Assembly (NCBI GenBank): GCA_963575745.1
Contig: CAUYUJ010000002.1
Span: 1,674,001 to 1,738,000 of the forward strand
DNA length: 64,000 nucleotides
DNA from: Prorocentrum cordatum
Lineage: Eukaryota
Reading direction: 5' to 3'
Shown here: positions 11,813 to 51,089 of the stretch, in pieces
Layout of the letters: the number at the start of each line of letters is the position of its first letter
How positions within the stretch are numbered: position 1 is the stretch's first letter
Notes under the pieces: model-generated
Database searches by the model: none
What the model was told of the DNA's origin: nothing
What the model saw: only the letters and a program-made list of their open reading frames with translations
Position numbers and translations under genes: made by a program

Positions 11813-11814
11813 GT

Positions 11815-11826: not shown

Positions 11827-11951
11827 GGGGTGACCCCGCTTCGGGCCCATGGGAGCTCCGGCGCGGCGCTGAGGAGGCGCTGTCCAGGAAGCTCTCGAGC
11901 GCCCGGAGCGAGGACCTCGCTTCCAGGTCCGACTGGCGTGGAGATCCACGG

Positions 11952-24830: not shown

Positions 24831-25114
24831 ACTTTAAACGGAGAAGGTTAAAGGCGAGGTATAAATCGAGCATGTACCGCTGCCGTGCCTGGCTCAAGCC
24901 GGGCCCGGCCAATATATGACTGTGCCTCACTGAGGCGCACAACTTGCATCAGAGATCGGAAAATACCTTTTCCATTGACGATGCCCATCCTATCCTTTAC
25001 TCCAGATCCCATGCTTCGTCTTGCTCTCTTGCTCATGCGATATGAGCCAAAGCCTGGGATATGGCAACGCTTAAAGCGTAACACATACCTAAGCTTACCA
25101 GCTTGTTTTCGACT
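24831..25114 (+). repeat. Element B 5' LTR
   Basis: ACTTTAAACGG...GTTTTCGACT matches 40952-41235 at 282/284. TATAAA is at 24860-24865. Confidence 0.95.
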
Positions 25115-28100
25115 TGGTAGCGGAGCTGGCTACACTCTCGTGTGGCTGGCTCTCGCTCTGATTCCTGTAATCCACGGCACAACTTGGTGGACTACTACTA
25201 CGGTGGAATACCATGTTGCGCCGGCTCTGCGAGGAGCGGAGCCAGTCCGCGATCGAGCTAGCGGGGCAACCCGCGAACTCGAGACGCTCTCTCCTACTTC
25301 ACTGCGCTACTTCACTCCCGACTTCCACCAGATGCCAATCGGCAACTCGATCGAGAACGTGGTCACCCTGCGGGGCTACCCGCAGCGGGGCCACCTGCAT
25401 CCCGTGCCGGTCAGGCGCCTCACGGCTACCACGCCAGAGCCTGACAAACCACAGCCCAAACCAATCACCGAAGCCGAAATGCACATGCATTGGATTAAGA
25501 TAACTATCTTCGGCATTCTGTGGGTAATAATGGGATGTGCTGTGGGATACATGCGGCAGGGGATGGACGACACGCGTACTACTGGCCCTTCATGGGACCC
25601 TGCCGGTACTACGCCTTTCCGCGAATACGTTCGCGAAGTACATGCATGGTTAAACGTAACGAGTGGCAATATGACACCACCACAACAAGCTGCAGCACTA
25701 CAACGAGGCCTTCAAGGTCTGGCTCGTCGTATCGCCATGCAGGTCCCCTCCCAGATCATCAATTATGGTGTAACTGTCAATGGACAGCCAACGGATGCAG
25801 TAACATATATACTGTACTTACTGAGCACCAAATTTGAAAATCTGGAAGATGAGCGCCAGCTCAACTCTGGCACTGCCCTTATCGACTTCCGCGTCGAAAG
25901 GGGCGAGCGAATCGACTCAGTATTAGCTCGATTCGAGATGGCCCGTGACGAGGCTAACTCTGTTGGTTTTGTCATCCCCAACTTTCAGATCCTAACGCTG
26001 ATTCTCTTCAGAGCGTTAGGCGTTGGCGCGTCACGAGCCCAACACCTGCTTGAGCCCTTCAATCATCAGATGCCCCGAACACAAGCAGACTATGACAGGC
26101 TGCTGACCAGGATGAGGAACTACGGACATGTTGCCGAGCGCTCTCCTGGCAACATAGCGGGTATCTTCACAGGGCACCACTCACATGCAGGTGTCTACGC
26201 CACGACTGCGGGGTCACCCGCTGGTCCTGGCGAGCCAAATCCCTGGGCTGACCCAGCCGATATGCCCAACGAGGCCACTGCCCTCTTAGGGCAGACCGGC
26301 CAGGCATCGGCAGAGGCAGCTGAGGCGAACGCCTGGTCGAACTACTCGCCAGGCGCCGCCTACACTGCAAGCCCGCCCTCGGGCACAACCCTCTGGGGCC
26401 AAGCGGAGTCATCCGCTCAAGGGTCTCAGCCACCCTCACCGTTTGAATCTGGCACTGACACAGATACCTCATCTGACGATGAGCACAATGGCATAGTCTC
26501 TGCTGGTAATGACTACCCAGCGGATGACACTCACCTCTCTGAACAACAAAGAGCGGAAGCCGCTTTTATGGCTTATCGCAAATCAAAACGCCGTTGGAGG
26601 CGCTTTATGAAGAAACCAGTCAGAAAGGTGAGACGTGCAGTACGCCGACATTTCAAACGATTTGGAAAGGGTCGTGGCAAAGGGGGTCGCAGACGCCGCA
26701 TGCATGGTAGGGGTATTACTGCTTTCCTCACGTCCTTAACTGATATGGCTTTTGAAGAAGTTCTTATCGGAGGCAAAGGTCGGGGTCACAGGCGGACCTC
26801 CGGTAAGGGAAAAGGGCGGAGGGGCAACCCTAGGGACGCTTCTGGCAATACTATGAAGTGTCATACATGCGGTAGCACAGAGCATTTGCGCGATCAATGC
26901 CCGAAGGGGAAAGGAAAGGGATCCGTACATGTGGCTCAAAATTCTTTTATGGATGACATAGATTACATTGACTACGAGTTTTACGTCAATCCAGACGCGG
27001 CCCCCGCCGCGGGCTCCTCCACGTATTACGTGATGGCCCGCTACGCTGAAGCAACCGTAGCCCTGGAAGACTACGCAGAGACCCTCTTCGACGAGTTCCA
27101 CGGCTGGGACGAGGTCGACGAGGTCGCGTACAATGCTTGGTTCGGTCTTCCAGCGGGGCCACCCGCCGGCGACGAGGTCTCCGAAGCAGAGACCGTCCCG
27201 GCAACAGAGGAAGAACTCACCGCCGTGCTGGCACCGCAAGTAATTGGCACGCCGTTGCTGCCAAATCCTTCGCGGGCTGGTTCGGAGGCGGGAGACGCCG
27301 ATGACGAAATGCGGGGCCATCCCGCGTATTCCGACTCCGAAGAAGCCGAAGAAGATTATAAGGACATGCTCCAAGAGGAGGTCTCAGAAGCAATCCGACT
27401 CCTGAGTGCGCCAGCACATCAGCACATAACCATGAACGAACTGCTGTCACACCCAGGAGTTGCACGTCTACGTCCATACTTGGATTCGAACATGTCAGCA
27501 TCTCAGATGTTGACAGCACTCCAAGCTCTAGCGGGGTCACCCGCCGAAGAGACGCTAGACGCAACAGCGGGGCCACCCGCTTGGTCTATGGATGTATTCA
27601 TGCAAGGTTGTGATCAAATGGACATTAACGACCTCACGATGGAGCAGTTAAACGACATCGGGTATTTCAGAAGCCCGTATCAAAACGTGTTCATGGTCCA
27701 GGACAGCTCAGAGGACTCGGAGGACATGCGTTACGCCAAGAGGGACAGGCGACCGTCGCCTCCCCGAGACTCAGAGCATGACGACCAAAGGCCAATGACA
27801 CGTGGTAGTGCGTCAGCGGGGCCAGCCCGCGGAAGGAGCCGTTCAGCTCCTAGACGCCCTACGCATGATGAATCGGGCTATCCATACAGTACTGAGCACT
27901 CCGTTGGAGTATCTGCTCAACAAGTGCCGGATTGGTACATCAGATGGTACCCCGGCTACTCGATGGATACTCTTCGCCACTGGTATTCTAAGGAGTATTG
28001 CACTAAAAGGGACGAAACTGGCGCGATAATACGTACCAAGGGTGGCAAGACCAAGACGCCAGAGGCTTGGGACAAAAGGGCTAAGAAGCAGGAGATCATC

Positions 28101-31100
28101 AACGATCGCAAGACATACAGGAAACAAGTATGTCAGTGCGAGCCCTTCAAAGGTCACATGCGCAGGTGTCCGATGGACCGCCCCTCCAGGAGCCCTCATC
28201 ACGGTGAGACCCCGTGGAATTGGTCTCATGGAGATGACGCTGGCAACGTCCATGATCCTAATAAGGAGGTCCCTGGAGGAGGAAAGCGCATCACCGAAGC
28301 CGATCGTGTCCCTATGACCGAAGAGGTGGCCAACATCGTCAGGGAAAATTGGGTACAGCTTCCCAATGACCATCGCCTCAAAGAATGGAACCGCCGATTT
28401 CATAAAGAGGCGGGGTCACCCGCAGGATCCAGTAAAGAGGCGGGGTCACCCGCAGGATCCAGCAAAGAAGCGGGGTCACCCGCAGACGCGGCGCCCGCCG
28501 CTGGGTCCGCGGAAGACGATTGGATAGCTGTTGCATCTGCTGCTGAGTCCGCCGCCGGCACTGACCACACCGAACTGAATGAAGAATGGGCGGCGGAAGA
28601 CGGCTCAGAGAATCCATTCCCTGACGGAAGCGCTTGCTGGTACTACAGCTCTTCGGCGCAGAAGTGGTTCTGCACGAGGGTAATCTACCGCCATGAGAAT
28701 GGCAAGTACAAGCTGGCCATAAAAGGTACTGCCGACATCGACCAGATGAGGCAGGTCATCCATGATCATGGCCAGCCAGAAGGCCCTCCTAGAGACCCTC
28801 CTAGTCCACAACCGGGCAAGGGCAGCAGACCACCTCCAAGACCTAAAGCCGACTCCTCGTCTTCACCGACTCCTGCGAAAAGGCACCCGTCCAAGAGCCC
28901 CGAAGGCACACATGGGCGGGCGAAGGCCAGAGGGATCGCCAAGACGGACGACCCTGAGCCGGCAGATCCTCCCGGTCTGTCCGTGACAGAGAGGAAGAAG
29001 GCTTTTGCTGGACCATCGACCCCGATGCCACCGGCGACCCAAGGCGATGTCAAGGACGAAGTTCGTGACAAGCCTCAGGCAGCTTTCAGGGGTGACTGGA
29101 CTCCAACTCTGCATCAGCCGCGCCTTGCACCACGACCAGGTTCGGCACGAATGAAAGCGCAGCCGAAGCCCGAAGCTGGGATGAGGTCGGTACGGGCGGA
29201 AGCGGCCGCCAAGGCTAAGGAGGACAAGGGCTCTGCGGGGCCACCCGCTAAAGCGGCGCCAGCCGCAACAGCGGGGACACCCGCAGAAGGCACTCTCTCA
29301 AGAGAAGAACGCTTCAGAGTCCTCAAAGAGTTTGGCGACCAACAGAAACTAACCGATGATGCAGCTGCTGACGAAGGTCACCCGAACCCTGGCGCGGAGT
29401 CATCCGCAGGAGCTGCCTCGTCGGCCGCAGGTTCTGCAGGGCCACCCATTAAAGCGGCGCCAGCTGCATTAGCGGGGCCACCCGTTAAAGCGCCGCCGGC
29501 TGCATTAGCGGGGCCACCCGCACAAGGACAGCCAATAATGTCTGTTCTCAGGAACATCCCTTTGGGAGCCATCGAATACTGGCAAGGCATTGAAGGCAAA
29601 GGCCCGAAGCGCACCATAAACCCACGAGTCACTCCAGACGATACGGACCGATACGAAGTCATTAATTGTCCGGTTCGTCGTAACTTCGAGTGCCGCAACG
29701 ACTGGGAACGTGAACAACAAACCGTGGGAAATATGTTGCGAGACAGGCCGCCACTACGCGTTGCGCAGCATAAAGCAGAGCTCCTGAAGGTCATGGAGAG
29801 GTTCGGCATGGATCCGACTTTGCCGCGCGAAGGGCAGATGACCAAGGTGTCAATGTGGTTTTCTACAGCCCTACGCCACAGTCCATATTGGAAGGACGGA
29901 TTCAGCCGACACTTCGAAAAGATCAGCACTTACGATCCATACGATGGCTGGGTGGTCGTTGACGATCTGCTGACAAACTGGACTGAAAATGATCAGTGGA
30001 AAGGCTATCGTGAAATGCACGAGGTGCTGATCAAGGGCAGGCCCCACACGTCATACGTGTATTGGGTGCTGCTAAACTGCTGTGAGATGATTGACCATCA
30101 CGGCATGCAGAAGGGCAGGCTCCAGATGAAGTGCGTTGATGACAGCATGCTGCTGCCTCCCAGGTTTCGACCGAAGGCACGCAGGCCACAGTACTTCATC
30201 AGAGCCACGAACGGCCACAGCAGTCCAGGCATCCACTGTCCCGAGTCGCTGTGCAAGCCGATCACAACATGGATGAAAGAACCAGACGACCCAGTATATT
30301 TCATCCACGGGACACAGTGGGAGTATGTCAAGGACATCCTTGCTAATGGCCTTTCATGCCTCGCACAGGACAACCCTAAGAGGAAGGGGGGGCGCCAATT
30401 TGTGCACGGCTGCCCCTACCTCCCGGGCGACCCGAGGATTCAATCGGGCATCCGTCCTGACTCGGAGGTGCTCATATTCTGCAGCATCAACAAGATGCTG
30501 TCCAGTGGCTTCTCTCTATGGAGATCAGCAAATGACATAGTCATGACACGGGGCCACGACGGACGTATACCGCCCGATCATATCCTCCAGATTGTGAGCA
30601 TTGCGAAATATCGGGTCGGCGAAGCCTGGAGCAATCCGCTGGCTTATGACAAGTCGCGGAGGCGGGGCCAACCCGCGGACAGGATTCGCACCGATGACTA
30701 CCTGCCACTTAAAATGTGTGACAGAACTCTGGGTGTAATGGAAGATCACGCCATGTACCTAAAGGGCTGGACTAAGACGGACGGTCGCCCATTCAATTTG
30801 ATCATGACCGAGCAAGATGTTGCTCCACGACCGTACGACACACAGACAGTCCTCATGATGAATGCCCAGGAGGACGAGGTCATGCCTGAAGCGGGGCCAC
30901 CCGCAGGTGCGGGGACACCCGCGGTAGACACCTCGGACGGTTCATGGCAACAAGTGGTCACACCAGTAGCAACGGTAGCATCTCCTTTGAGGCCGGACCA
31001 GCAGTCATGGGTCCAGGCCCTCAACAGCCATTTGACATCAGCCGACGTCTCTGGACTGACCGATCAGCTATATCGTGCTGACCCGTGGGCGGTGCATACA

Positions 31101-34100
31101 GGTATCCAAGACGCACAGCAGAGGAACCTGCGCACTCCTGCGGGGCCACCAGGCGTCCTAGGACCACAACCACAACGCCCTCCGCAGCAGGCTGGAGGTG
31201 CGAGGTTTGTCCCTATGGGCGGTTCAGATGGTGGCTCGCCGTTTCGGACTCCGCCGTCTGAAACGAGCGAGAACAGCCTGTGGCAACGACTCCAGGCGAT
31301 TCGCGGAAATCCGGCGCTCGCAGCAGCACTCCAGGCGACCACTCCCTTTGGCACTCCGAGGGGTAGTGAAGGAGGAGTGGCTGCGGGGACACCCGCCGAG
31401 CGAACGCCTGCGGAGTCATCCGCACATGCGGGGCCACCCGCTGACGGACAGCAAGGTTCAGACTACGAACGTCGGGCAGCCAACTTGAGAGCACAGGCTA
31501 CCTTTCTGCAGCAACAAGCTGATAGAGTGCCCAGCCTGTTGCGGAACCGCAACATAGATGTTACGAATCATGGCGACTTTCGGCCTCTCTGGAGCTGGAC
31601 TTCTGAAGATGCTCCAAATGCTGATCCCACGAATCCATATCGACAGGTGTTTATTCCAGGAATAGCATCACACCCAATATATGGATGGGACAATCATGGA
31701 CCAGCAGAGGCACAGGCCATGGACGCGCCGATGTACCCGGAGTACTACGCGCAGATGAATAACACTCCTATGATTGCGGGGCCACCTGCGAACGAATACA
31801 CTCGGAATCTTGCCAATGAGATGTTTCGTTTGCAGTTTACACGAGCGGTCGATGCGCAGTCTATGCCGCACTACGCCTACATGCCCACGCCGACGGACCC
31901 CGAGACCGTAGTTCAGCCAGCTGGTCTCGCGGTGCCAGCCGCTATGGGCAGCATGCCAGACTACATCCGCGACGTGCACAACACGCAGCAAGCGATACTG
32001 GCATCTAGGCAGCAGGCTCGGGACAACGCCAGGCTGCGCCAACAGCGCGCGATCCAGAGAAGGATCGAGCGTGAAAACCAAGCGGGGACACCCGCAGACG
32101 CGGGGCCACCCGCTGAACGAACAGATAGACTGCCGCCACCGACGCCATATCGGGAGGGCGAAACCACTTTCGAGCGTCAGGCTCGGACTCGCCCCGACGT
32201 GCCTGCTCCAGTCATTTCAGACTACAACTTCACACAGTGCCCAATCTGTATGGACTCCTACGAGATGGGCACCACAGTGTGGAGACTGGCGTGCGGGCAC
32301 TTCTTCCACGATATATGCTGGGATCGTGTTGCACAGCAGCACGTCCGCAATCAGCGACCAGGTGCGCCGAACGAGGCCCCCTGCGCTGTATGTCGTGGGC
32401 CGGGCATAATTACAGCACATTTCCCGTATGCTGGACAGCGCGACGCTGAGTCGGAACAAGCGCGCCAGCAGGAAAGGTACGTGGTAGATGCCCGGGAACT
32501 GCGTCGGCTGCGGGAAGCAGTGGAGGCACTAGAGGCTCGAGCCGCACACTCGGCGGAGCCATCCGCACGTGCCCCAGCTGCACAGACACACCCCTGGCCA
32601 GCGCCAGAGCAAGGCATCCAGATGCCAATCCTGCCTACGCTTCGAGCGCAGGAGCCCCCAGCAGCGGGGCCACCCGCCGAAGCGGCTCCCGCCGCCAAAG
32701 CGGGGCCACCCGCAAATGGACCTCCGAATCCAGGATTCCTGAGGGCAATGGAGGCCAATATCAGGCGGAGTGGCAGGAGCGGAGGCGGGACGCGCAGGCC
32801 GACTGGATCATCCAGGACCTCACGTGTGGCGAGCCCGGTCAGCGCTAGGAGCCGGGCAAGCGCTGAAAGCGCGGAGGCAGCCCAGTTCCACACCACATTC
32901 ATGATTGATACAAAAGGGCTGACCTATGCACGTGACGACACGGACACGCTGCCGCCAGGAGGTGAATGGACGTCCACACTCTCTGCGAATTATTGGGTTC
33001 TTGAACAGGAACCAATTACCGTAGAGGAGCGCCGCCAATATGAGCAGATGTGGTGCACCGAGTTAACCATGAGCCAATGGGTGCTTGAGCAGCGCCTGTT
33101 GAAAGGCACACTCGGTTCACAGATTACGTACCACACTGATGACCATGGTACGATGGCTCTGGCAGCGCGGAACGGGACGTTCTTCCCTGACGAAGACGGA
33201 CTGCCGTGCATCTCGTTCATGCTAGACATTGGCTCCAACGTGAACATCATCGGAGCCAATACGGCGCGAACCTTCCAGGAGGCTATGGCCAGGTACAATC
33301 ACAGACCTGCCATATGCACCCTGAGCAAGACCCTCTACATCAACGGTGTCGGTGAGGGTGCTGCGATATGTCGGAAAATGGGCAACTTCAAGATCGGGGT
33401 GCAATACGCCAATGAGGCAAGCCCCCGTATCGAGGAGTATGCCTCCAACATCGCAGAAGGCTCGGGTGCCAACCTCCCGGCCATCTGGGGCCTTGGTGCC
33501 ATGGAAGCACGTGACACGATCATCGTGCTGAAGCCAGGCTACCAGAAGGTTATCTTCCCCAGCGGAGATTATACTCTGAAGCTGGGGAGGGGCGCCAAGG
33601 TCCTGAGGGCGAAGAAAACTCCCTCAGGACATCTAGCCATTCCCTGCGGTTTGTATGACGGGGCTAAAAGCCAGACGGTCACGAACACCTTCACAATCCG
33701 CAGCAGTCGAGATGGCTACACCGAGACGGAGAACGAAGAGGACCCCGTCAGTGCGGGGCCACCCGCCGGTGTAGGTGCGGGGCCACCCGCCGGAGTAAGT
33801 GCGGGGCCACCCGCTGAGACCACAGCGGGGCAACCCGCGACGGGACAGTCCATGACCGTCACGACTGATACGTACATTGTCGAGCCGTATCTCGACAAGC
33901 AGCTCCTGGAAGACACGACCCGTTTGATCGTGGACAGGACGCTGAACAGCTGGTGGGAGGGCCAACAGTGTCCCGAAGGGACCTGGCCACATATGAAGGA
34001 TGCCCTGAAGTCCAAGATATTTTGGGCAGTCCAGGAGGCGGTGAATAAATGGACGCCTGAGAACCAAGCGGGGCCACCCGCGACACCGCCACCACCACCA

Positions 34101-34247: not shown

Positions 34248-37200
34248 CGGGGGCAGGCGGGCGCGCCGGCGGCGCTCGCTTGCGAAGAGAAGCCGAATAC
34301 CGGCCTCCTCGCGACATACGTTGGCCGCGCTGAGGCCCGAGAAGAAAAATATCATTCAAAATGTCTCGTCATCGAAGATATTCGCACAGCTTGCGCTGAA
34401 CTCCGAACCCGTGGATATATATGCGACCGGATTACCCATAATGAGGTAATGACTTCAACTGGAACACAGTATTTGGGAAATTTGTTGGCAGGAGACTACA
34501 ATATGTTGTGGGTGGCCACACCCTCTGATTGGTACGTTCGTACTCCAGGAAAGAGGGCGGGACCACATTATCAACGTATACAAAATCTCCTGATCAAAGC
34601 GCGTGCTCTGAGAATGCAGATAGTTATCCTGGGGCCACCCGGGTATTTCTGGAAACAGGGTCCGATCAAAGATGTTATCGAAGATTTGAAGCTAAGCATT
34701 ATACGAATCAGACTCTGTCATTTCGGTATCAAGTTTGACCGATCCAGTAAATATCCCAGTGGTTCTTATATACAAGTTGCTACATCTTGTCCTCATATAC
34801 CGATAAACTTATGGAAATGTACTTGTGGCTCACACAAGGAGCATGATTTGGATTGGTATGGCCAAGATCAGCAACGTGCCGAGTTTCGGTATAAAACTTT
34901 GGCTATTATTATTGCACGCTTCCTTGATCAACTCGATAAAGCCAACATGATCAGGAATGAGCGGAGTGCGGTACACCTCAGTGTGTGTACACGCGTTGAC
35001 AAAAAGGTCAGACACTACGTCCAATGTCCACAAAAGGGCCCTCAATGGGACCATGTGGTTCGTAGGGTCACGACCGACCTGGACACGAACAAGATCGTTC
35101 AAGATATCAGAATCCAGGATCAGCCAACTGGGTACAATTATGTAGCTCCATTACCTGATGGGGTTACAAACATCAGTACTCGGCTATACTGGGAGCCTCC
35201 GGCTCCAGTTCTTCATGGCAATGGTGAGTCGCGAAGGCCACGCCCAAAGCGTGTGACGATCGTCGACGACGATCGATCTCCTCCCCCTTCGATTGAGCGT
35301 TGCCAAACGCGACCCACCAACAACCTTCCTGAAATTCCGCCATTTCCTGACTTTACAGCGGATTCCTCCGCAGCGGATCTCTCCGCGGAAACTGCGTTGC
35401 CCACTGATGCCAGGATAAAACAGAAAGAAAAGCAGAAAGCTGACAAAGAAGCCGGCATCAAACCGAAGAAAGTCCCGAAGAAAGTGGAAGACGGTAACGA
35501 CGACTGTGGAGAGGACCTCAAAGGGCTTGACTGCTCCACATATTTCAACGACGTTCCTCTTGACGACTCGGACTCGGACAGCGAATCAGAGGACATCTTC
35601 ATGATGTTACCGGCGGGGCAACCCGCTGACTCACATGCTGATGTCTTCTCGATAGTCCAGTCGTTATGCTACGGCAGAAACAATCAAGTGGACATGCTTG
35701 AATTATGTGGGGGCAAGGGTGGTATATCCATATTAGCCTTCAAGAGGGGACTCTCGTCAGGCGGGAACCTTGACAAGATATCTATGGTTGACCTTGGAAA
35801 CTCGGAAGTACAAAGAGCAGTCCTCCACTACCTCAAGACTTGCTTTGTCAAGATCACGATTCTGCAGCCAAGCTGCAGAACTACTGGACTTCCTTCCTAT
35901 TTCAATGCACAGGTCAATCATGATACGTGGCTTAAACACCACAAAGAGGACCTGCCTCACATCACGTTCTGTGGAACAGTCGCTCTATTACAAGACGACC
36001 TAAGACGTTTCTTTCTCAGGGAACAACCAATGGGCACGTGGGTGGATGAGATCCAGCCATGGAAGGAACTGGCACAACGCAAGGTCACTTGCCAAACGAT
36101 TATTGATCAGTGCACGACTGGTCTCAAAGATTCATTTGGACAATACATCCGCAAGCCAACACAGATGATGGCAAACAAAGAAGAGTTGTTGGCACCTTTC
36201 AGAGGCAAGCGTTGTCCAGGTAATCATGTGCACGCCAATGCTTGTAATAAAGAACTAGCAAGGGCGGCACAGTATACCTACAGAATGCAGTCACTGATCG
36301 TTGATGCGGTGCAAATCGCCAAAGACCTGTTTGCTTACGGTCGCGATCCATTCGCGAATCGTGAACGCAGCTATGCGTTCGTAACAAACAGTGCTGGCTA
36401 CGACTTGGACGACCCAACAATCCGGAGACACCCAAACGGAGAAATCTGGCGACCACCACCTGGCGGTCTTGGGTGCCCTGGCTGTGTGGACAACAACTAC
36501 AAGCAATCACCAAAGCACAGCAGGGATCCGAAGATGTGTCGGTGGTATGATGTTGAACCGTATTACTGGGACTGTCCAAGCTGTAAGAAGGAATATCAGA
36601 AGAGCAATCCTCACCACACCAAGATATCTGGCCAATGCAGATTCGCCGAAAAATGGAAGCTGCCAGATAACTTTGGCCAGCCGCGCCCGGCGGGGCAAGC
36701 CGCTCCTGCGGCGCCAGCCGCGGAAGCGGCTCCAGCCGCAGAAGCGGCGCCAGCCGCAAAAGCGGCGCCGGCCGCGAGAGCGCGCATACGCGCGCCTAGG
36801 CCGCCACGGCCTGGTGAGGGCGATCCAACCGCAGGCGCCAGCAGCCATGACATCACCAGAGCCGACGGGGCTAATGGTGGCAACAGTGGCGCTGGCAGCT
36901 CTGACGATCACCGTAGACTGCCACAAGTTGCAGCAAGGCGCGGACGCATGGAGGGAGGAGATCCTCCACCACCGCCGCAGCCTCAAGCAGAGCCGAGGCC
37001 AAGGCCAAGGCTCCCTGATTGGACTCGCTTCGACGTTCAGCTCAGCCTCCAAAACCTGCGCAGCTTCGACCCAGCTGTAGTGCAGCGAGAACTCCGCAAA
37101 CTCCACCTGAGATGGTTTCATGCCAAGGAGCCAAAAATGCGGATGATTCTAACCAAGGTTGGTCTGGGTGAAACCCGTTTGAGTCTGATCAAAGGCATTT

Positions 37201-40200
37201 GTGACTCGTGTAGAGAATGTCGAGCCTGGGACAAACCAGGCAACACGGTGATGCCTTCTGTGTCACTGCCAGGACGTTTCAACGAGGAAGTCGAATGTGA
37301 TCTTTTCTTTTACAAACAGGAACATATTGTTTTTCACATCATCGACCGTTGTATTCGCTGGGCAGCTGGCACAGAGATTCCTGATAAAGCCATGCATACT
37401 GTTCTCGATGCCTATCATACGACTTGGATGCAACATGGCCCTGCTAAAATCTTATACTCCGATGGGGAAGGAGCACTGAATAATGATACAGCAAAGGCCA
37501 TCCTTAAGGCTAAGGGAACAGAGCTTCGTATTCGAGCGCGTGGCCAACACGCTACAACTATCGAAGCTAGGAACGGCATCCTGCGACACCTCTTACACGT
37601 GATGGGAGAAGAATTGAATAGATTAAATATTCCTCTCAATTTCACTCGTCTCTTACATGAAGCCTTGTTTGCCAGCAACGCATTTACCTTCTACAATGAA
37701 GTGTCTCCGTACAATGCGCTGTATGGCAGACAACCAGCTATGCTTCCCGATTTCCCTGTCTTGGATCATGATCAGTCCGCTGAATCATCAGATCACTCAA
37801 GGGAGGAAACAATCAGGAGGGTTAGTCTGGAGGCAATCACGCAGGCCACTGCGGTTGCCAAGACGAACAGGGCTCTCCGTACGAAGACTACTGCTACGGG
37901 TGAATTTCACTACAAAGAGGGAGATCTCGTGGACTATCATCGCCCGACCACCACGAAAGACGACTGGGGTGGATGGAGTGGTCCATACCCGGTCATCCGC
38001 AACGAACCTGACCGAGGCCAGGTCATCGTGAAGGTCGGCAGTCGCGAAGTGCGAGTACAGTATCCTGACACACGACACACACTGTACATCGAAGCACTTA
38101 TGGTCCGCGAGATAGGATCGGACAATACGGCCCTTCGGACAGTATTGGCCTTTATTGCCGGTCTGCCAGCGGGGAAACCCGCCATGACTTTCGGATATCT
38201 ACCAGCGAAACAGGGTCGGCTGCAGATGACTGCTGCGAGCCGACTTTCGCCTAAGGTGCACTTGGCTCTTCAGTACCTCATACGCAACTACTTTCGTATT
38301 GAAAACGTTGTTGCTGTACGACTTGCCAAGAGCCTGACGAAGTTGCCTGCTGCACCCTATGCAGACAGCTGTACACTAGTGCACTATGATAATGATGTGA
38401 CCCCTGGTTTTCATTACTATGAAGCTGATGGCACTGCCTTGAACATCTATGACATCACAGGATCTACACACTCACGCATCATCCAGTGTCTTAAATCCAG
38501 GAAGCCGTCTGCTGGATTTGACCAAGACCTCACTAAGTTTGAGGAACTCGCTGATGGTCCACCACCAAGCGAATCACCTCCAGCAGCTGCTCCTGAGGAG
38601 CCTCCTACGGATAACGATGGTCGGCTCCCGACCATCATAGAGGAAACAGAAGAAGATCTGGATGCTTTTGTCTTGAAGTCGTGGTATGCTGAACTGATGG
38701 ATGACAGAACACTCCTTGAAGCTGACACAGAGGAAGTCATGCATACAGTTCCCACATACATGACAGACACACAGTGTGTGTTAGTCTCTACGACCTGTGA
38801 AGATGTGCAAGGCCACTTGCCGGAGCGGGGTCACCCGCCAGGATACGACATGGACACTTCTTACTACGTTCCTTTATGCTCCACGGATCCGGATAGCAAA
38901 TATGATCTGGACTCCGATGAGCACGGGAAGTACATCGAGCTCTGCTTCACTGCAGACATGTCCAAAGTCGTCCTGTCCGAGCAGCAACACCGATTGTTGG
39001 ATGACAGCAGCGTCACAACTATGCGAGTATACGTTAGCGCTGCCTCCAAACGTGCCGTGGTCGTCAAGGAAGACGATCTACTCACGAAGGCCGACATCCA
39101 AGCAAATCCGGTCAAAGTTTCCAAAGCCCTCTACACAGAATTGAAGACTTGGCTTGACAACAAATGCTTCCAGATGACTGACTTAAGCAAGGCGTCTAAC
39201 ATCATGACGTCACGCTACGTATACAAATGGAAGTTTGTCAAGAACGAAAAGGGCGAAATGGAAAGGACGATCAGGTTACGCTTGGTACTCCGTGGCTTCA
39301 TGGACCTCGAAGCCTTTGATGTCGAAACCTTCTCTGGCACGGCAAGGAGGTCAAGCCAGAGACTGCTCGCAAGTTCTGCTGCATGCAACAAAGCTTGGAT
39401 CATCGCTTCCCTGGACATCAACATGGCTTTCTTGAAGGGACTGACCTATGGCGAGCTCGCCGCGGCAACGGGCGAGAAAGAGCGTGTGGTGTGCTTCACA
39501 CTACCACCTGGGTCAGCAGCTGTCCTTCGCACACTGCCAGGCTTTGAGTCATATGACGAATCAAAGCATTGTCTCCGGTGTCTGAAACCGGGGACGGGCA
39601 CGAAGGATGCTCCCAGGGCATTCTCGCTGAAGCTCAGGTCCATCACTAGGAGCTTTGGGCTACAGCCTACTTCATACGACGAAGAGTTCGAGATGAGCCC
39701 AAACCTCTTGACAGCCAAGCACGTTGATGACATCAATATGACTGGGAAGGAAGAGGCTATTGACAAGTATGTCAAGTGTGTTGAAGATACGTTTGGGAAG
39801 TGCAAACTGAACAAGCACACATACACAAACTGTGCCGTTCGGTACAACAAGACCGATGATGGGAGCGTCACTCTCGATCAGGACGAATACATCAAACAGC
39901 TTCGTCCTATCACACATCCAGAACTCACAGGAGCTGATCCTGAGAGCAAAGCGACAAAGACGATTTCTGATATGTTCGTCAGTCTTCGTGGCGCTCTAGC
40001 CTATGCGTTGATCACGCAGGTATGGCTGATGGTCTATGTTGTCTCACTACAACGTATCCAGGAACCGACAAACATCCAGGTACGACGACTAAACGCGGTT
40101 ACCAGAAAGCTACAGGCAGGTCCGAAGAAGATCGTGTATCAAGCTATGACCCCAACAGGAGAAGTCGACCTGCATAGCGATTCTGGCTATCGTCGTCTCA

Positions 40201-40847
40201 ACGGAGATGAAGACGACGAAGTCAAAGGCTATGGTATCCGCGGGGCTAACCTGCTGAGGCGTGGCCACACGCAAGCGGGGAAACCCGTCGTGCACCTGGT
40301 GGACGCATACTGCAAGTCTCATCGACTGCAGGTGCGTTCGAGCTACTCTGCGGAAACACTGGCAGCAGCCCACAACTTGGAAGACTGCTACCCGACCATT
40401 GTAACGCTCCACGAGCTACACTCGGGACCATTGACCCCCACACAGTTAAAGAACATATTGGAAATGGGTGGTCTATGTATCAAAGTCACTCTGACTATTG
40501 ATGCCGAGTCTGTCTTCAAGTCTTTGTCTAGCAAAGATCTGAAGAAGCCCACAGAATGTACTCTGCTTGGGCACATCAGCTGGATCCGCCAGATGATGGA
40601 ACGCGGAATCGTGGAAAGCGTCCAATGGTGTGACACGCGGGATATGACTGCCGATGGTCATACCAAAGGTAGTATTGACCGCGCGTTGCTCCTACAAGTA
40701 ATGGCCGGCCAGCAATCCTTCAAGCACGAGCTGAAGAAACATACGCCGTATAGGGCGGGCAGGTCGTCTCAGGACGGCCCTGCCTCCCGAGCCAGCGGGG
40801 AAACCCGCGGGCAGGTGCGCTTTAGTAGCGAGGAAACTCGCCGGTAG
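34248..40847 (+). CDS. Element B ORF2/pol: degenerate DNMT-like + DNMT-like domain, CCHC fingers, integrase, RT, RNase H
   Basis: Open and in frame directly after the ORF1 TGA (first ATG 34449). DNMT ELCGGKGG/QPSC/EQP/RKPT (35688-36310); integrase HLRWFH..CREC, CDLF, SDGE, IEARNG; RT RLVLRGF, DINMAFLKG, KDAP, HVDD; RNase H HSDSG, SSYSAETLA, IDAESV, MTADGHTK. Confidence 0.93.
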   Translation, partial: RGQAGAPAALACEEKPNTGLLATYVGRAEAREEKYHSKCLVIEDIRTACAELRTRGYICDRITHNEVMTSTGTQYLGNLLAGDYNMLWVATPSDWYVRTPGKRAGPHYQRIQNLLIKARALRMQIVILGPPGYFWKQGPIKDVIEDLKLSIIRIRLCHFGIKFDRSSKYPSGSYIQVATSCPHIPINLWKCTCGSHKEHDLDWYGQDQQRAEFRYKTLAIIIARFLDQLDKANMIRNERSAVHLSVCTRVDKKVRHYVQCPQKGPQWDHVVRRVTTDLDTNKIVQDIRIQDQPTGYNYVAPLPDGVTNISTRLYWEPPAPVLHGNGESRRPRPKRVTIVDDDRSPPPSIERCQTRPTNNLPEIPPFPDFTADSSAADLSAETALPTDARIKQKEKQKADKEAGIKPKKVPKKVEDGNDDCGEDLKGLDCSTYFNDVPLDDSDSDSESEDIFMMLPAGQPADSHADVFSIVQSLCYGRNNQVDMLELCGGKGGISILAFKRGLSSGGNLDKISMVDLGNSEVQRAVLHYLKTCFVKITILQPSCRTTGLPSYFNAQVNHDTWLKHHKEDLPHITFCGTVALLQDDLRRFFLREQPMGTWVDEIQPWKELAQRKVTCQTIIDQCTTGLKDSFGQYIRKPTQMMANKEELLAPFRGKRCPGNHVHANACNKELARAAQYTYRMQSLIVDAVQIAKDLFAYGRDPFANRERSYAFVTNSAGYDLDDPTIRRHPNGEIWRPPPGGLGCPGCVDNNYKQSPKHSRDPKMCRWYDVEPYYWDCPSCKKEYQKSNPHHTKISGQCRFAEKWKLPDNFGQPRPAGQAAPAAPAAEAAPAAEAAPAAKAAPAARARIRAPRPPRPGEGDPTAGASSHDITRADGANGGNSGAGSSDDHRRLPQVAARRGRMEGGDPPPPPQPQAEPRPRPRLPDWTRFDVQLSLQNLRSFDPAVVQRELRKLHLRWFHAKEPKMRMILTKVGLGETRLSLIKGICDSCRECRAWDKPGNTVMPSVSLPGRFNEEVECDLFFYKQEHIVFHIIDRCIRWAAGTEIPDKAMHTVLDAYHTTWMQHGPAKILYSDGEGALNNDTAKAILKAKGTELRIRARGQHATTIEARNGILRHLLHVMGEELNRLNIPLNFTRLLHEALFASNAFTFYNEVSPYNALYGRQPAMLPDFPVLDHDQSAESSDHSREETIRRVSLEAITQATAVAKTNRALRTKTTATGEFHYKEGDLVDYHRPTTTKDDWGGWSGPYPVIRNEPDRGQVIVKVGSREVRVQYPDTRHTLYIEALMVREIGSDNTALRTVLAFIAGLPAGKPAMTFGYLPAKQGRLQMTAASRLSPKVHLALQYLIRNYFRIENVVAVRLAKSLTKLPAAPYADSCTLVHYDNDVTPGFHYYEADGTALNIYDITGSTHSRIIQCLKSRKPSAGFDQDLTKFEELADGPPPSESPPAAAPEEPPTDNDGRLPTIIEETEEDLDAFVLKSWYAELMDDRTLLEADTEEVMHTVPTYMTDTQCVLVSTTCEDVQGHLPERGHPPGYDMDTSYYVPLCSTDPDSKYDLDSDEHGKYIELCFTADMSKVVLSEQQHRLLDDSSVTTMRVYVSAASKRAVVVKEDDLLTKADIQANPVKVSKALYTELKTWLDNKCFQMTDLSKASNIMTSRYVYKWKFVKNEKGEMERTIRLRLVLRGFMDLEAFDVETFSGTARRSSQRLLASSAACNKAWIIASLDINMAFLKGLTYGELAAATGEKERVVCFTLPPGSAAVLRTLPGFESYDESKHCLRCLKPGTGTKDAPRAFSLKLRSITRSFGLQPTSYDEEFEMSPNLLTAKHVDDINMTGKEEAIDKYVKCVEDTFGKCKLNKHTYTNCAVRYNKTDDGSVTLDQDEYIKQLRPITHPELTGADPESKATKTISDMFVSLRGALAYALITQVWLMVYVVSLQRIQEPTNIQVRRLNAVTRKLQAGPKKIVYQAMTPTGEVDLHSDSGYRRLNGDEDDEVKGYGIRGANLLRRGHTQAGKPVVHLVDAYCKSHRLQVRSSYSAETLAAAHNLEDCYPTIVTLHELHSGPLTPTQLKNILEMGGLCIKVTLTIDAESVFKSLSSKDLKKPTECTLLGHISWIRQMMERGIVESVQWCDTRDMTADGHTKGSIDRALLLQVMAGQQSFKHELKKHTPYRAGRSSQDGPASRASGETRGQVRFSSEETRR

Positions 40848-40951
40848 CGAGGCTACTCGCGCGCCCTTTCCTTGTAGGCAGCCGCTGCTGCTTAGCACTG
40901 TTTTTCCGCATAATGTAAAAGTGCGGTACCTGCTCGTCTCCTCCCCCTCCG

Positions 40952-41235
40952 ACTTTAAACGGAGAAGGTTAAAGGCGAGGTATAAATCGAGCATGTACCG
41001 CTGCCGTGCCTGGCTCAAGCCGGGCCCGGCCAATATATGACTGTGCCTCACTGAGGCGCACGACTTGCATCAGAGATCGGAAAATACCTTTTCCATTGAC
41101 GATGCCCATCCTATCCTTTACTCCAGATCCCATGCTTCGTCTTGCACTCTTGCTCATGCGATATGAGCCAAAGCCTGGGATATGGCAACGCTTAAAGCGT
41201 AACACATACCTAAGCTTACCAGCTTGTTTTCGACT
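40952..41235 (+). repeat. Element B 3' LTR
   Basis: Matches the 5' LTR and is followed by TSD GGCCA. Confidence 0.95.
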
Positions 41236-49992: not shown

Positions 49993-51089
49993 CTGAGGCA
50001 CGCTAAGGCCGAGGCAGGCTGAGGCCGAGGCAGGCTGAGGCTGAGGCTGAGGCAAGCCGAGGCAGGCTGAGGCTGAGGCTGAAGCTGAGGCTGAGGCTGA
50101 GGCACGCCGAGGCAGGCTGAGGCTGAGGCTGAAGCTGAGGCTGAGGCTGAGGCAGGCTGAGGCTGAGGCCGAGGCAGGCTGACGCCGAGGCAGGCTGAGG
50201 CTGAGGCTGAGGCAGGCTGAGGCTGAGGCAGGCTGAGACTGAGGCTGAGGCAGGCTGAGGCTGAGGCTGAGTCTGATGCAGGCTGAGGCTGAGAGGCTGA
50301 CGCTGAGGCTGAGGCAGGCTGAGGCTGAGGCTGAGGCCGAGGCAGGCTGAGGCTGAGGCTGAGGCAAGCCGAGGCAGGCCGAGGCTGGGGCTGAAGCTGA
50401 GGCAGGCTGAGGCTGTGACTGAGGCTGTGGCTGAGGCTGAGGCAGGCTGAGGCTGAGGCAGGCTGAGGCTGAGGCTGAGGCTGAGGCTGAGGCTGAGGCA
50501 GGCTGAGGCTGAGGCTGAGGCAGGCTGAGGCTGAGGCCGAGGCAAGCCGAGGCAGGCTGAGGCTGAGGCTGAGGCTGATGCTGAGGCAGGCTGAGGCTGA
50601 GACAGGCTGAGGCTGAGGCTGAGGCAGGCTGAGGCTGAGGCAGCTGAGGCTGAGGCCGAGGCAGGCTCAGGCCGAGACAGGCTGAGGCTGAGACTGAGGC
50701 TGAGGCTGAGACTGAGGCCGAGGCAGGCCGATGCTGAGACAAGGTGAGGCTGAATGGGGGGGGAAGGGGGGGGGGAGGAGGGGAGGCTGAGGCAGGCTGA
50801 GGCCGAGGCAGGCTGAGGCTGAGGCAGGCTGAGGCTGAGGCTGAGGCAAGCCGAGGCAGGCTGATGCTGAGGCTGAGGCTGAGGCTGAGGCTGAGGCTGA
50901 GGCTGAGGCAGGCTGAGGCTGAGACAGGCTAAGGCTGAGGCTGACGCAGGCTGAGGCCGAGGCAGGCTGAGGCTGAGGCTGAGGCTGAGGCTGAGGCAGG
51001 CTGAGGCTGAGGCCGAGGCAGGCTGAGGCTGAGGCTGAGGCAAGCCGAGGCAGGCCGAGGCTGAGGCTGAAACTGAGGCAGGCTGAGGC
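49993..51089 (+). repeat. (GAGGCT)n / (GAGGCAGGCT)n satellite
   Basis: Directly visible. Confidence 0.95.

Follow-up and report, generated by a model that had tools for sequence, protein, structure and literature searches.

The 64-kb stretch of DNA that we analysed (the window) contains an LTR retrotransposon of the Ty1/copia superfamily that is intact, present in many copies and recently inserted; matches to named proteins indicate Prorocentrum cordatum as its most probable host. It belongs to a clade common in marine metagenomes. The members of this clade are predicted to share a Gag-protease polyprotein with an N-terminal membrane anchor and a RING-H2 finger, and their Pol opens with two C5-methyltransferase-fold domains that are followed by integrase, reverse transcriptase (RT) and RNase H. 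The sublineage represented here has gained a Tpt1 domain and about 1,700 linker residues. We also observed an array of hairpins on the sense strand, a new finding beyond the initial annotation of this DNA. Overall, we consider our explanation of the element, taking its structure and the proposed functions together, to be probable.

The element is 16.4 kb long, with LTRs in direct orientation and a short duplication on both sides (Table 1). The LTR identity and the intact target duplication claimed in the initial annotation were both reproduced, with GGCCA flanking each LTR, and a TATA-like box can be read inside the 5' LTR at 24860-24867. The LTRs lack TG...CA termini, starting with AC and ending with CT, and there is no polypurine tract upstream of the 3' LTR, where the bases before 40952 are pyrimidine-rich; both features are usual for Ty1/copia elements and not strictly defining of them. 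The translation of the primer-binding site recurs near the start of the related elements E3, L047, L062 and L009, and no tRNA gene was found within the window. In DNA run X9, a contig connects 24825 directly with 41236 and so lacks 16,410 bases, the length of the element plus one copy of the duplication. The flanks are satellite DNA, so this junction, which resembles an empty site, may derive from another repeat unit.

Table 1. Features of the element, in positions of the window.
Feature	Position	Strand	Basis or remark
Target-site duplication, left copy	24826-24830	+	GGCCA, 5 bp, abuts 5' LTR
5' LTR	24831-25114	+	284 bp; 282/284 identical to 3' LTR
Putative primer-binding site	25115-25126	+	TGGTAGCGGAGC; TGG-led 12-mer abutting LTR, read from sequence
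Probable 5' leader	25127-25478	+	4 hairpins, out of ORF frame
Hairpin array	25261-40860	+	49 hairpins, 5-bp stem, GNNA loop
ORF1	25479-34247	+	From Met just before hydrophobic segment; ends TGA
Hydrophobic, transmembrane-like segment	25485-25556	+	Directly ahead of Gag core
Gag core to CCHC zinc knuckle	25569-26906	+	tblastn conservation; knuckle 26856-26906
Tpt1/KptA RNA 2'-phosphotransferase domain	29859-30554	+	PF01885, structure matches
RING-H2 finger	32235-32396	+	Three RING models past cut-offs; PDB matches
Putative aspartic protease	33210-33686	+	tblastn conservation in 20 loci; motif columns
In-frame TGA	34245-34247	+	Between protease and Pol; next codon CGG; probable read-through site
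ORF2 (Pol)	34248-40847	+	Methylase-like 1, methylase-like 2, Cys/His module, integrase, RT, RNase H
C5-methyltransferase-fold domain 1, degenerate	34338-34970	+	Predicted model, structure search
C5-methyltransferase-fold domain 2, catalytic-type residues kept	35679-36338	+	Predicted model, Foldseek, second search
Cys/His-rich module (approximate limits)	36432-36647	+	Conserved Cys/His columns, after domain 2
Integrase	37083-38090	+	Aligns to rve-positive integrase of neighbouring element, E 2e-8
Reverse transcriptase, copia type	39159-39938	+	PF07727 RVT_2
Putative RNase H (approximate limits)	40095-40697	+	Position after RT; motif columns
3' LTR	40952-41235	+	284 bp; 2 mismatch columns vs 5' LTR
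Target-site duplication, right copy	41236-41240	+	GGCCA, 5 bp, abuts 3' LTR

Several observations speak to copy number and distribution. In run X1, 50,888 contigs were placed on the element; all 30 bins of the element were covered in three DNA runs, and near-identical sequence was found in 20 runs from 15 studies. Proteins named as P. cordatum, with 64-98% identity, come from at least seven different contigs. Metatranscriptome matches comprised 12 contigs of one library, and such libraries can contain DNA. Among 77 related metagenome loci, the membrane-anchored Gag, the RING finger and both methylase-like domains are widespread.

The multi-enzyme architecture described in the initial annotation proved correct. 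That an assembly chimera or a nested insertion joined host Tpt1, RING and methylase genes to a normal copia element is hardly credible: the window is indeed rich in repeats and other elements, and the short-read contigs each cover only part of the element, but the coding frame is continuous apart from one conserved stop, only one LTR pair and its target duplication are present, and relatives from other sources are colinear. The relative P0162, at 33% identity, can be aligned colinearly across 1,512 columns that take in Tpt1, RING and protease, and E3, a decayed relative within the same window, has a layout like that of the element. Furthermore, an X2 contig (34095-34537) bridges the stop between ORF1 and ORF2, and an X9 contig (35109-36335) bridges the linker between the methylase-like domains. 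As to whether other copies lack the accessory domains, a question posed with the initial annotation, we found RING in ORF1 of all eight relatives tested (seven over the Pfam cut-off), and 1,289 proteins matched the N-terminal, methylase-like part of Pol at E ≤ 0.001; only Tpt1 is limited to a sublineage.

The two stop-to-stop ORFs, 24852-34247 (3,131 aa) and 34248-40847 (2,199 aa), share a common frame. The initial annotation had counted about 5290 codons in one frame broken by one stop; the single internal TGA was confirmed, and the open frame is in fact 5,331 codons long. The stop does not represent damage, as an in-frame Gag-protease/Pol boundary with a single stop ahead of Pol recurs in eight related loci. 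The TGA is thus a probable read-through site. ORF1 runs in the order anchor, Gag, CCHC knuckle, linkers, Tpt1, linkers, RING and protease.

Membrane segments had been proposed, and one of these is real. ORF1 residues about 212-235 are hydrophobic, with 19-residue windows starting at 212-217 exceeding a hydropathy of 1.6, and by eye 10 of the 11 related sequences carry a hydrophobic stretch at the equivalent point, conserved in position with no sequence identity. Another stretch lies upstream, at residues about 88-107, and may not be translated, since it starts in the translated primer-binding site, in the probable leader; because the frame is open from within the LTR, translation of the leader is possible. 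In the Gag region, residues about 200-690 of ORF1 are conserved in 14 loci by tblastn, and the Pfam match to the CCHC knuckle is weak (E 0.0088, under the cut-off).

The protease and RNase H also claimed earlier were found at consistent places with the appropriate motif columns, and profiles did not recognise them. In the protease region, 16 sequences share invariant Asp-x-Gly, Gly-Val-Gly and Pro-Ser-Gly-His columns, the middle residue of Asp-x-Gly being Ile, Pro, Leu or Thr, compared to Ser or Thr in the retropepsin active site; Pfam and PDB profiles did not recognise the region, and the best Pfam match was to Peptidase_A2_2 (E 0.17), for one of the 16 members. The RNase H region has invariant Asp/Glu/Asp/Asp columns in a seven-sequence Pol alignment and no profile match. 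We infer both identities from position and conserved motifs. The integrase and copia-type RT are secure, as annotated, the former through the rve integrase of the neighbouring element and the latter through RVT_2 (E 2.4e-10, 40.9 bits vs a cut-off of 31.6; Pol residues 1638-1897). The integrase occupies Pol residues 946-1281, upstream of RT, which is the Ty1/copia order.

The RING finger passes three Pfam cut-offs (zf-C3HC4_2, 29.8 vs 27; zf-RING_2, 29.3 vs 27.3; zf-RING_11, 28.6 vs 27), its eight Cys/His ligands can be read in the translation in C3H2C3 order, and its PDB matches are the RING domains of RNF126, Arkadia and RNF165. The domain assigned earlier as a RING E3 is therefore well founded as a RING, and its predicted function is that of a ligase.

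The Tpt1 assignment likewise stands well over its curated cut-off, with PF01885 matching at E 2.1e-15 and 57.6 bits (cut-off 26) over profile positions 10-177 of 177. The mammalian TRPT1 structures 7yw3 (E 2e-13) and 7yw2 (E 3e-12) also match. A catalytic tetrad is described in the excerpted text of PMC10622864; two of the four positions, both distal Arg, align to solved TRPT1, and the Arg-His pair in the Pfam-matched N-lobe is kept in E1, P0162 and E3, the reference alignment covering only the distal Arg. Like the cellular Tpt1/KptA enzymes, as far as that text (PMC10622864) and the structures 7yw3 and 7yw2 describe them, the element's domain is a Pfam member above the cut-off whose C-terminal NAD lobe aligns to TRPT1; unlike them, it forms part of a retrotransposon polyprotein, and a long insertion interrupts its N-terminal lobe. 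The domain is conserved in P0162, P0170 and E3.

Tpt1 occurs in none of the 77 related metagenome loci, 10 of which fully contain the Gag-to-RING or Gag-to-protease interval, still without it. It is thus dispensable for the clade, and its distribution points to a sublineage addition by later capture. This absence, together with the largely low-complexity character of the extra ORF1 sequence, could suggest that the accessory parts are passengers, with Tpt1 and the long linkers being inert captured host sequence tolerated since the family is young. We regard this as improbable, because Tpt1 is colinear in P0162, where overall identity is 33% and conservation of the domain is strongest at the active-site strands, because the domain scores above the Pfam cut-off in the two lineages (57.6 bits, and 62.9 bits in P0162, where RING is present too), and because the frame is open across 3,131 codons. 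A literature search found no report of Tpt1/KptA or RING within an LTR element. One paper reportedly concerns a KptA-like gene in gammabaculoviruses.

The two DNMT-like domains of the initial annotation are supported at the level of predicted fold: a C5-methylase fold is indicated for both, and catalytic-type residues are kept in domain 2 and absent from domain 1. Domain 1 was modelled with pLDDT above 90, and the best 50 VIA matches listed are all C5 methyltransferases or DNMT3L (M.HhaI, Z 10.8, rmsd 4.5, 186 residues aligned; DNMT3L, Z 9.8). Its strand ends do not carry the expected Gly-rich loop, Cys or Glu, and different residues are invariant at the cofactor and catalytic places. At most one of the two domains could therefore be such an enzyme. 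Domain 2 (pLDDT 87) gave Dnmt2, DNMT3B and DNMT3A as best Foldseek matches, at E 3.6e-4 and up, and in a Foldseek-independent search the best 8 of 48,161 chains were all C5 methyltransferases (Z 11.1-9.3). In the domain 2 model, Gly-Gly follows strand 1, an acid strand 2, Pro-x-Cys strand 4 and Glu strand 5, an arrangement equated with motifs I, IV and VI by strand order rather than by residue-level superposition. These four features are near-invariant in 41 relatives (Cys in 34/34, Glu in 34/37, Gly-Gly in 24/26 and Asp in 26/29 sequences). The Cys/His module that follows domain 2, at the place where a target-recognition domain and motifs IX-X would be expected, has low model confidence.

We also considered that these domains might be not methyltransferases but a diverged Rossmann-type module with fold resemblance only, serving in nucleotide binding, scaffolding or a different chemistry. 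Indeed, no Pfam methylase family (PF00145) matched either ORF at E ≤ 0.1, a PDB sequence search gave no match, Foldseek reached only E 1.7e-4 to 1e-3 with TM 0.3-0.5, and only 170-190 residues align to C5 enzymes of 290-350 residues. In addition, no target-recognition domain was identified, domain 1 is without every cofactor and catalytic position, and Rossmann dehydrogenases come near the methylases for domain 2 (Z 9.2 vs 11.1). However, they trail by about 2 Z, the top matches of both domains listed above all belong to the C5 methyltransferase family, and the domain 2 residues fall in the order of that family. A non-methylase module is thus somewhat unlikely, and we favour a C5-methyltransferase fold for both domains.

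The hairpin array is a feature of the genomic strand, with 49 hairpins on the + strand vs 8 on the − strand; 29 of the 49 are GCGGG-GNNA-CCCGC. In 300 synonymous-codon shuffles the mean was 2.25 hairpins and the maximum 7, compared to 48 observed, and non-canonical stems numbered 19 against a shuffle mean of 1.5. Paired changes are seen in 13 distinct stems, and in E3 the equivalent pair is G-C, G.U or A-U. The hairpins sit in linkers that bracket Tpt1, RING and protease, none within folded domains, and their density is highest in the leader, at about 11 per kb, where those at 25261 and 25370 are in frames 1 and 2. The enrichment does not extend to the clade as a whole: 438 kb of relatives had 51 on the + strand vs 50 on the − strand.

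Because 34 of the 49 hairpins share one frame, reading A-[GEA]-x-[PSA]-A, a protein-level role of the peptide is also possible. In its strict form, this view holds that the 14-nt motif matters solely as peptide: duplication or gene conversion would have spread A-G-x-P-A linkers or protease cut sites, and nucleotide identity and hairpin potential would be by-products. The location in linkers around the Tpt1, RING and protease modules fits this explanation, as do the three copies carried by a 30-nt tandem repeat at 28410-28483 and the A-G-Q-P-A of P0162 at comparable linker spots. However, the other 15 hairpins lie outside this frame, 4 of them in the leader, and all copies are on one strand. 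Paired stem changes, Gly to Glu jointly with Pro to Ser, alter the peptide and keep the pairing, and synonymous positions are fixed contrary to the codon usage of the element: GGG is used in 26 of 28 motif codons and CCC in 25 motif Pro codons, whereas elsewhere in the element GGG usage is only 15% and CCC 16%. Together with the excess of non-canonical stems and the G.U and A-U variants in E3, these findings make a protein-only motif unlikely.

A bolder reading, less likely than not, is that the hairpins are a self-identity code, threaded through the codons and recognised by one of the element's own proteins. The reader could be the nucleocapsid, with the array as a dispersed packaging signal to choose and condense an unusually long RNA. 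Another candidate reader is the Dnmt2-like domain, which would methylate a loop or stem cytosine and so mark the RNA as self. The commonest loops are GCCA and GUCA, then C, which presumably recalls the anticodon-loop context of the known Dnmt2 tRNA targets.

The functions proposed for the parts of the element are all predictions and can be combined as follows. ORF1 would be translated up to the TGA, and occasional read-through would yield a Gag-Pol fusion and set the Gag:Pol ratio. The protease would cut the polyprotein into modules, with the A-G-x-P-A linkers as candidate cut sites. Tpt1 may remove internal 2'-phosphates or ADP-ribosylate 5'-phosphate ends on the element RNA or the primer, such that damaged, religated RNA could still be copied. 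The RING domain may ubiquitinate a host factor or Gag itself. Methylase-like domain 2 would be an active SAM-dependent enzyme that marks the element's DNA or RNA, and the degenerate domain 1 a non-catalytic partner. Finally, the RNA hairpins would be bound at many sites by a protein of the element, in the simplest case the nucleocapsid, and this binding would lead to selection and packing of the 16-kb genome. Such parts could make up the counter-defence or self-regulation system suggested in the initial annotation. If the code is real, and is combined with the anchored Gag, the RNA-repair-type enzyme and the E3 ligase, the clade would be virus-like, a group of retroelements equipped to mark their RNA and to interfere with the host.

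Descriptions of LTR retrotransposons usually stop at gag-pol, with at most a chromodomain or env-like gene in addition. Here we find a copia lineage with virus-sized coding capacity, in which the ubiquitin-ligase finger and the methylase-fold pair are stable clade-wide parts. The hairpin array would be an RNA structure overlaid on mobile-element coding sequence, open to direct testing, with covariation visible within a single element copy. Dinoflagellate genomes are huge, heavily methylated and Copia-rich, and an abundant element with a possible nucleic-acid methylation activity is relevant to how these genomes are shaped.

Gammaretroviruses and the Candida copia-like element Tca2 make Gag-Pol by read-through of a single in-frame stop. 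As in these, Gag(-protease) and Pol of our element are in frame, separated by a single stop (UGA here, UGA or UAG in those systems) that is followed by C or G; in contrast, the fold predicted downstream of the element's stop is unsupported (z -0.59, no better than shuffles). Retroviral packaging signals contain tetraloop hairpins and lie in the 5' leader only, single-stranded RNA viruses have dispersed packaging signals, and these viral stem-loops are bound by capsid or nucleocapsid protein. The element's hairpins are similarly short genomic-strand stem-loops with a defined loop. Unlike the retroviral signals, the array, predicted from sequence, has about 50 copies that span 15.6 kb of coding sequence, within codons.

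The closest described dinoflagellate elements also have LTRs and an integrase ahead of RT and RNase H: the Ty1-copia-like SmTCL1-4 of Symbiodinium are large (SmTCL3 is about 10 kb), recently expanded and multi-copy, according to the excerpted text of PMC5776459. Compared by description, SmTCL1-4 are presented there with RT, integrase, RNase H and LTRs only, and the Tpt1, RING and methylase-like domains, the anchor and the hairpins of our element go unmentioned in that text (PMC5776459). Methylase-bearing retrotransposons are known as SymbioLINE-DNMT, SymbioDIRS-Dnmt3 and KnitGypsy-Dnmt3, and the self-methylation idea originates in the same work, as its excerpt indicates (PMC5890265). They resemble our element in having a C5-methylase-type domain inside the Pol polyprotein, dinoflagellates included, and differ in their class (LINE, DIRS and Gypsy) and in that Pfam recognises their DNMTs, according to that description (PMC5890265), whereas here a Copia element has two tandem Pfam-invisible domains, one of them degenerate. 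The excerpt states that Symbiodinium Copia "lacks any DNMT domain" (PMC5890265); with dinoflagellate Copia stated to be DNMT-free and these domains invisible to Pfam, profile-based surveys probably missed the methylase module. An envelope-like gene is present in Sirevirus and some other copia elements, which, as outlined in part of PMC3599292, likewise encode a membrane protein within the copia superfamily. In these the env-like ORF comes after Pol (PMC3599292, same part), whereas in our element a signal or anchor lies at the Gag N-terminus, where the relatives also have an N-x-S/T-rich region.

E1, the 16.4-kb Ty1/copia-type element at 24831–41235, is bounded by direct repeats of 284 bp (24831–25114 and 40952–41235) that mismatch in 2 columns when aligned with their flanks. 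The pentamer GGCCA lies directly outside both LTRs, and a TGG-led 12-mer of the tRNA primer-binding-site type abuts the 5' LTR. By its LTR divergence of 0.7%, the insertion is recent. The initial annotation had reported the boundaries, the LTR identity, the target duplication and a frame broken by one stop, and all of these proved correct, as the LTR alignment, the GGCCA pair and an ORF scan placing both ORFs in the same frame demonstrate. We found no polypurine tract before the 3' LTR in 40848–40951, the last ~20 bases of which are pyrimidine-rich, and TG...CA termini are absent from the LTRs. GC content is higher in ORF1 (0.565–0.607) than in ORF2 (0.51–0.53), in keeping with the concentration there of GC-rich hairpins and of linkers rich in Ala, Gly and Pro.

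The same satellite, made of ~397-bp units of 21–32-bp subrepeats, flanks E1 on both sides (22452–24830 and 41236–43300) and is also seen at 2–4.6 kb, 7.4–10 kb and 22–24.8 kb of the window. One contig from a DNA run joins position 24825 straight to 41236, like an empty site. Two microsatellite-like arrays lie elsewhere, at 8609–9291 (16-bp unit, ~43 copies) and at 49995–51089 (AGGCTG-based, ~190 copies), and Rfam at gathering thresholds gave no matches in the whole window.

Coding features of E1 (window positions for reading frames, residues for domains)
Feature	Position	Strand	Details
ORF1, stop to stop	24852–34247	+	3,131 aa
Single TGA between ORF1 and ORF2	34245–34247	+	
ORF2, stop to stop	34248–40847	+	2,199 aa, same frame as ORF1
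CCHC knuckle	ORF1 residues 669–685		Pfam, weak, below cut-off
Tpt1/KptA	ORF1 residues 1670–1901		Pfam E 2.1e-15, 57.6 bits against a cut-off of 26
RING finger	ORF1 residues 2462–2515		three Pfam models slightly above cut-offs
Protease (putative)	ORF1 residues ~2787–2945		position and conserved columns
Integrase	ORF2 residues 946–1281		supported by alignment to the neighbouring element's integrase (rve-positive)
RVT_2	ORF2 residues 1638–1897		sole Pfam match in ORF2
RNase H (putative)	ORF2, after RT		position and invariant acidic columns

In the Tpt1/KptA domain, the C-terminal lobe aligns to structures of mammalian TRPT1 (7yw3, E 2e-13), and the alignment includes the two distal arginines of the catalytic tetrad defined in PMC10622864. 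The Arg-His pair lies in the Pfam-matched N-lobe and is kept in E1, in P0162 (a database protein from another source) and in E3, a decayed relative near the window end. The RING finger is of the H2 type and resembles those of RNF126 and Arkadia. In the putative protease, Asp-x-Gly, Gly-Val-Gly and Pro-Ser-Gly-His are invariant across 16 related sequences; its profile gave a single chance match against the PDB (E 0.95), and nothing below E 0.05 against Pfam.

The initial annotation also proposed membrane segments. One of these, at ORF1 residues ~212–235 immediately before the Gag core, holds up: by eye, a hydrophobic stretch occurs at the matching place in 10 of 11 related sequences, with no sequence identity there, and the Gag of this clade therefore looks membrane-anchored. 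The segment upstream of it starts in the translated primer-binding site and falls in a probable leader. Because the hairpin copies in 25127–25478 are out of the ORF frame, this stretch is probably a leader, with ORF1 likely starting from the Met at 25479, although the frame is open from within the LTR. In two related metagenome loci, L043 (717–1500) and L062 (2549–3543), a signal-peptide-like start and many N-x-S/T sites precede the Gag anchor, which suggests that this N-terminal part of Gag may be lumenal and glycosylated; the pre-anchor region of L043 also contains a repeated unit.

The N-terminal part of Pol had been described as two DNMT-like domains. Among 1.84 billion representative proteins, the first 900 residues of ORF2 have 1,289 relatives at E ≤ 0.001, most of them fragments spanning one of the two domains. 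Searches of PDB sequences with Pol residues 1–800 gave a chance match only (E 1.5), and the profile of a 7-sequence Pol alignment gave none at E ≤ 0.1. AlphaFold2, run with a 49-sequence alignment, predicted two confident domains (pLDDT > 90) with disordered linkers between them. The top Foldseek PDB matches of the domain 1 model run were DNMT2, DNMT3L, DNMT3B, ZMET2 and M.HhaI, and in VIA-align this domain (model residues 12–222) superposed on M.HhaI with Z 10.8 (rmsd 4.5 over 186 residues) and on DNMT3L with Z 9.8, all 50 of the 50 matches listed belonging to the C5-methyltransferase family. Similarly, domain 2 folded alone (pLDDT 87) had Dnmt2, DNMT3B, DNMT3A and DNMT1 as its top Foldseek matches, and a Foldseek-independent search of 48,161 chains placed C5 methyltransferases in all of the top eight positions (Z 11.1 to 9.3), with short-chain dehydrogenases starting just beneath them at Z 9.2. 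Because these structure searches favour C5 methyltransferases for both domains, the DNMT-like assignment is right at the level of the fold.

It does not extend to catalysis in both domains. The domain 2 model has a Gly-rich loop after strand 1, an Asp ending strand 2, a Pro-x-Cys after strand 4 and a Glu-x-Pro after strand 5, and in a 41-sequence alignment these residues are highly conserved (Cys 34/34, Glu 34/37, Asp 26/29, each Gly 24/26). Domain 1 has none of these cofactor- or catalytic-type residues and keeps other invariant residues. Domain 2 thus has the appearance of an active enzyme, and domain 1 that of a non-catalytic copy; the arrangement recalls DNMT3L beside DNMT3A, as a resemblance only. 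A profile–profile comparison aligned the two domains colinearly over 169 columns at a non-significant E of 0.067 (probability 0.8), too weak a match to establish an origin by duplication. A complex prediction for the two domains, run without the alignments, scored 0.00 and is uninformative on their pairing.

We then asked the relatives of E1 how much of this architecture they share. P0162 (1,627 aa) is colinear with ORF1 residues 1570–2960 at 33% identity and carries both Tpt1 (62.9 bits) and RING by Pfam. E3, on the plus strand from ~57.3 kb to the window end, which cuts it, is a sister-family member decayed by frameshifts and stops; it shares the primer-binding site, the anchored Gag, Tpt1 and the linker motif with E1, and only 531 and 44 nt of the two are alignable as DNA (65% and 84% identity). 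The full-length Pol relatives P0005–P0010 have 42–61% identity to ORF2 and both methylase-like domains. A scan with the 7-sequence Pol alignment yielded 77 related metagenome loci, of which, by tblastn with ORF1, 14 have Gag, 18 the RING region and 20 the protease. Tpt1 was found by tblastn in none of the 77, including 10 that fully contain the Gag-to-RING or Gag-to-protease interval. By Pfam, RING is present in ORF1 of 8 of the 8 relatives tested: seven exceed the cut-off, and the eighth reaches 25.1 of the required 27.3 bits. Two of these relatives, L040 and L062, are probably one element. At 8 of the 16 loci inspected, ORF1 runs in frame into Pol across one stop codon (TGA or TAG), with C, G or A as the next base. 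ORF1 and Pol of L030 and L033 lie in overlapping, different frames with no in-frame stop, which suggests that frameshifting as well as read-through may occur in the clade.

From these comparisons, the anchor, the RING finger, the tandem methylase-fold module and, in most members, the in-frame stop are traits of the clade, and Tpt1 and ~1,700 residues of extra linker are additions in the sublineage of E1, E3 and P0162. The initial reading, a multi-enzyme element with a counter-defence or self-regulation toolkit, is supported in part: the architecture is real, is conserved among the relatives above and is probably functional, with counter-defence as a candidate role. At 11736–21196 (+) the window contains another giant copia-like element, from a different family, with a 2,804-aa open frame containing CCHC, rve and RVT_2 and, after a frame change, a 408-aa frame. 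It shares methylase-like domain 2 with E1 (E 9e-10), has no RING or Tpt1 by Pfam and has only 1 GNNA hairpin.

E1 also contains a hairpin array that is absent from the initial annotation. Wherever the peptide A-G-x-P-A occurs in E1 it is written with identical codons, GCG GGG NNA CCC GC; outside the motif GGG makes up 15% of Gly codons, CCC 16% of Pro and GCG 24% of Ala. The underlying 14-mer, GCGGGGNNACCCGC, occurs 34 times in E1 (≤ 1 mismatch) and 9 times in E3, always on the plus strand and nowhere else in the window, against a chance expectation of 0.87 matches. It forms a 5-bp stem with a GNNA tetraloop (−9.3 kcal/mol). Perfect 5-bp stems of any sequence closing a GNNA loop number 49 on the plus strand of E1 versus 8 on the minus strand, and 4 of those 8 are two sites doubled by the LTRs.

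The canonical stem is found in 29 of the 49 hairpins; the other 20 have 12 different stems with changes in both partners (five cases of G-C to A-T and three of G-C to C-G, plus others). Of all 49, 15 are not in the frame that encodes A-G-x-P-A. Synonymous-codon shuffles (n = 300) gave a mean of 2.25 hairpins and a maximum of 7, versus 48 observed, and for non-canonical stems a mean of 1.5 and a maximum of 8, versus 19 observed. The loops (n = 48) are mostly GCCA (24), GTCA (10) and GACA (4). With one G.U pair permitted, the leader is the densest region (4 in 361 nt), ahead of ORF1 (4.0 per kb) and ORF2 (2.9 per kb); the LTRs have none. Tpt1, RING, protease and the Gag core have no hairpins inside them and are bracketed by hairpins. 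The E3 variant of the hairpin ends in CCTGC, making a G.U pair, and the equivalent pair in E3 is G-C, G.U (6 sites, canonical stem) or A-U (2 sites); the G.U variant is compatible with pairing in RNA, not in duplex DNA. We conclude from these sequence patterns that selection likely acts on base pairing in the sense-strand RNA, at sites where the protein tolerates it; the A-G-x-P-A peptide may additionally be a linker or cut site. The relatives show no overall enrichment (51 hairpins on the plus versus 50 on the minus strand in 438,002 bases of the 77 loci). Some have plus-strand 14-mers of their own with a GNNA centre (≤ 1 mismatch; 5 in L009, 4 in L011 and 5, all imperfect, in L006), in numbers too small to separate sequence from structure.

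Database proteins named as Prorocentrum cordatum match pieces of ORF1 at 64–98% identity, most at 93–98%, and come from at least 7 different contigs. Some of these gene models splice together far-apart parts of E1, for example the Tpt1 N-lobe straight onto the protease (models joining distant pieces are P0163, P0164, P0165, P0168, P0169 and P0011), and they therefore look like annotation artefacts of a repeat. In UniRef, some are named protein-tyrosine-phosphatase or 1,3-beta-glucan synthase. Three short peptides filed in the EukProt Pyramimonas sp. data set (P0171, P0173 and P0174) are 89–97% identical to ORF1 pieces and may reflect dinoflagellate contamination or a shared element.

Sequence nearly identical to E1 was present in 20 public runs from 15 studies, most of them metagenomes of marine, estuarine or plankton samples. 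We aligned contigs of four runs (X1, X2, X9 and X20) to 24500–41500 in 30 bins. The DNA runs contributed 50,888 (X1), 1,298 (X2) and 914 (X9) matching contigs, each run covering 30 of 30 bins, and differences from E1 across the four runs are mainly transitions. The E1 family is thus high-copy and not the product of one assembly. The metatranscriptome X20 gave 12 matching contigs over 15 of 30 bins, which is no proof of transcription. One of its contigs stops at flank position 24613 with loose letters, which we take to resemble part of the dinoflagellate spliced leader. Two RNA runs from one culture (X21 and X22) had next to none of the sampled E1 words and are uninformative on expression.

We infer a scheme in which the role of each part is predicted. 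Read-through of UGA-C would set the ratio of Gag-PR to Pol; a read-through structure gained no support from RNA folding of the stop codon and what follows it (100 nt in all), where the energy of −46 kcal/mol (z −0.59) was equalled by 55 of 200 shuffles. The protease would then free the modules of the polyprotein. When cleaved RNA is rejoined by healing-and-sealing ligation, 2'-phosphates remain that would hinder copying; Tpt1 could clear these, or alternatively could cap 5'-phosphate ends with ADP-ribose. Tpt1 enzymes have been reported to do both. The RING finger might ubiquitinate a host factor or Gag, domain 2 might methylate the DNA or RNA of E1, and the hairpins would serve as repeated protein-binding sites along the genomic RNA.

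Large (~10 kb), heat-activated Copia-like elements are known from Symbiodinium, for which the available text of PMC5776459 describes RT, integrase, RNase H and LTRs alone. LINE and DIRS elements of dinoflagellates, as well as a Gypsy element of a charophyte, are known to carry DNMT domains; dinoflagellate Copia elements are without them according to PMC5890265. An opinion paper on accessory domains names, in its opening part, chromodomains, exonucleases, helicases and methylases. In open-access papers and preprints we found no description of Tpt1/KptA in a retrotransposon or of a RING finger as an LTR-element accessory domain, and for tetraloops as packaging signals of LTR retrotransposons the open-access literature gave retroviral leader studies only. 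On the basis of open-access papers and preprints, we rate both the module set of this Ty1/copia element and its RNA feature as unreported.
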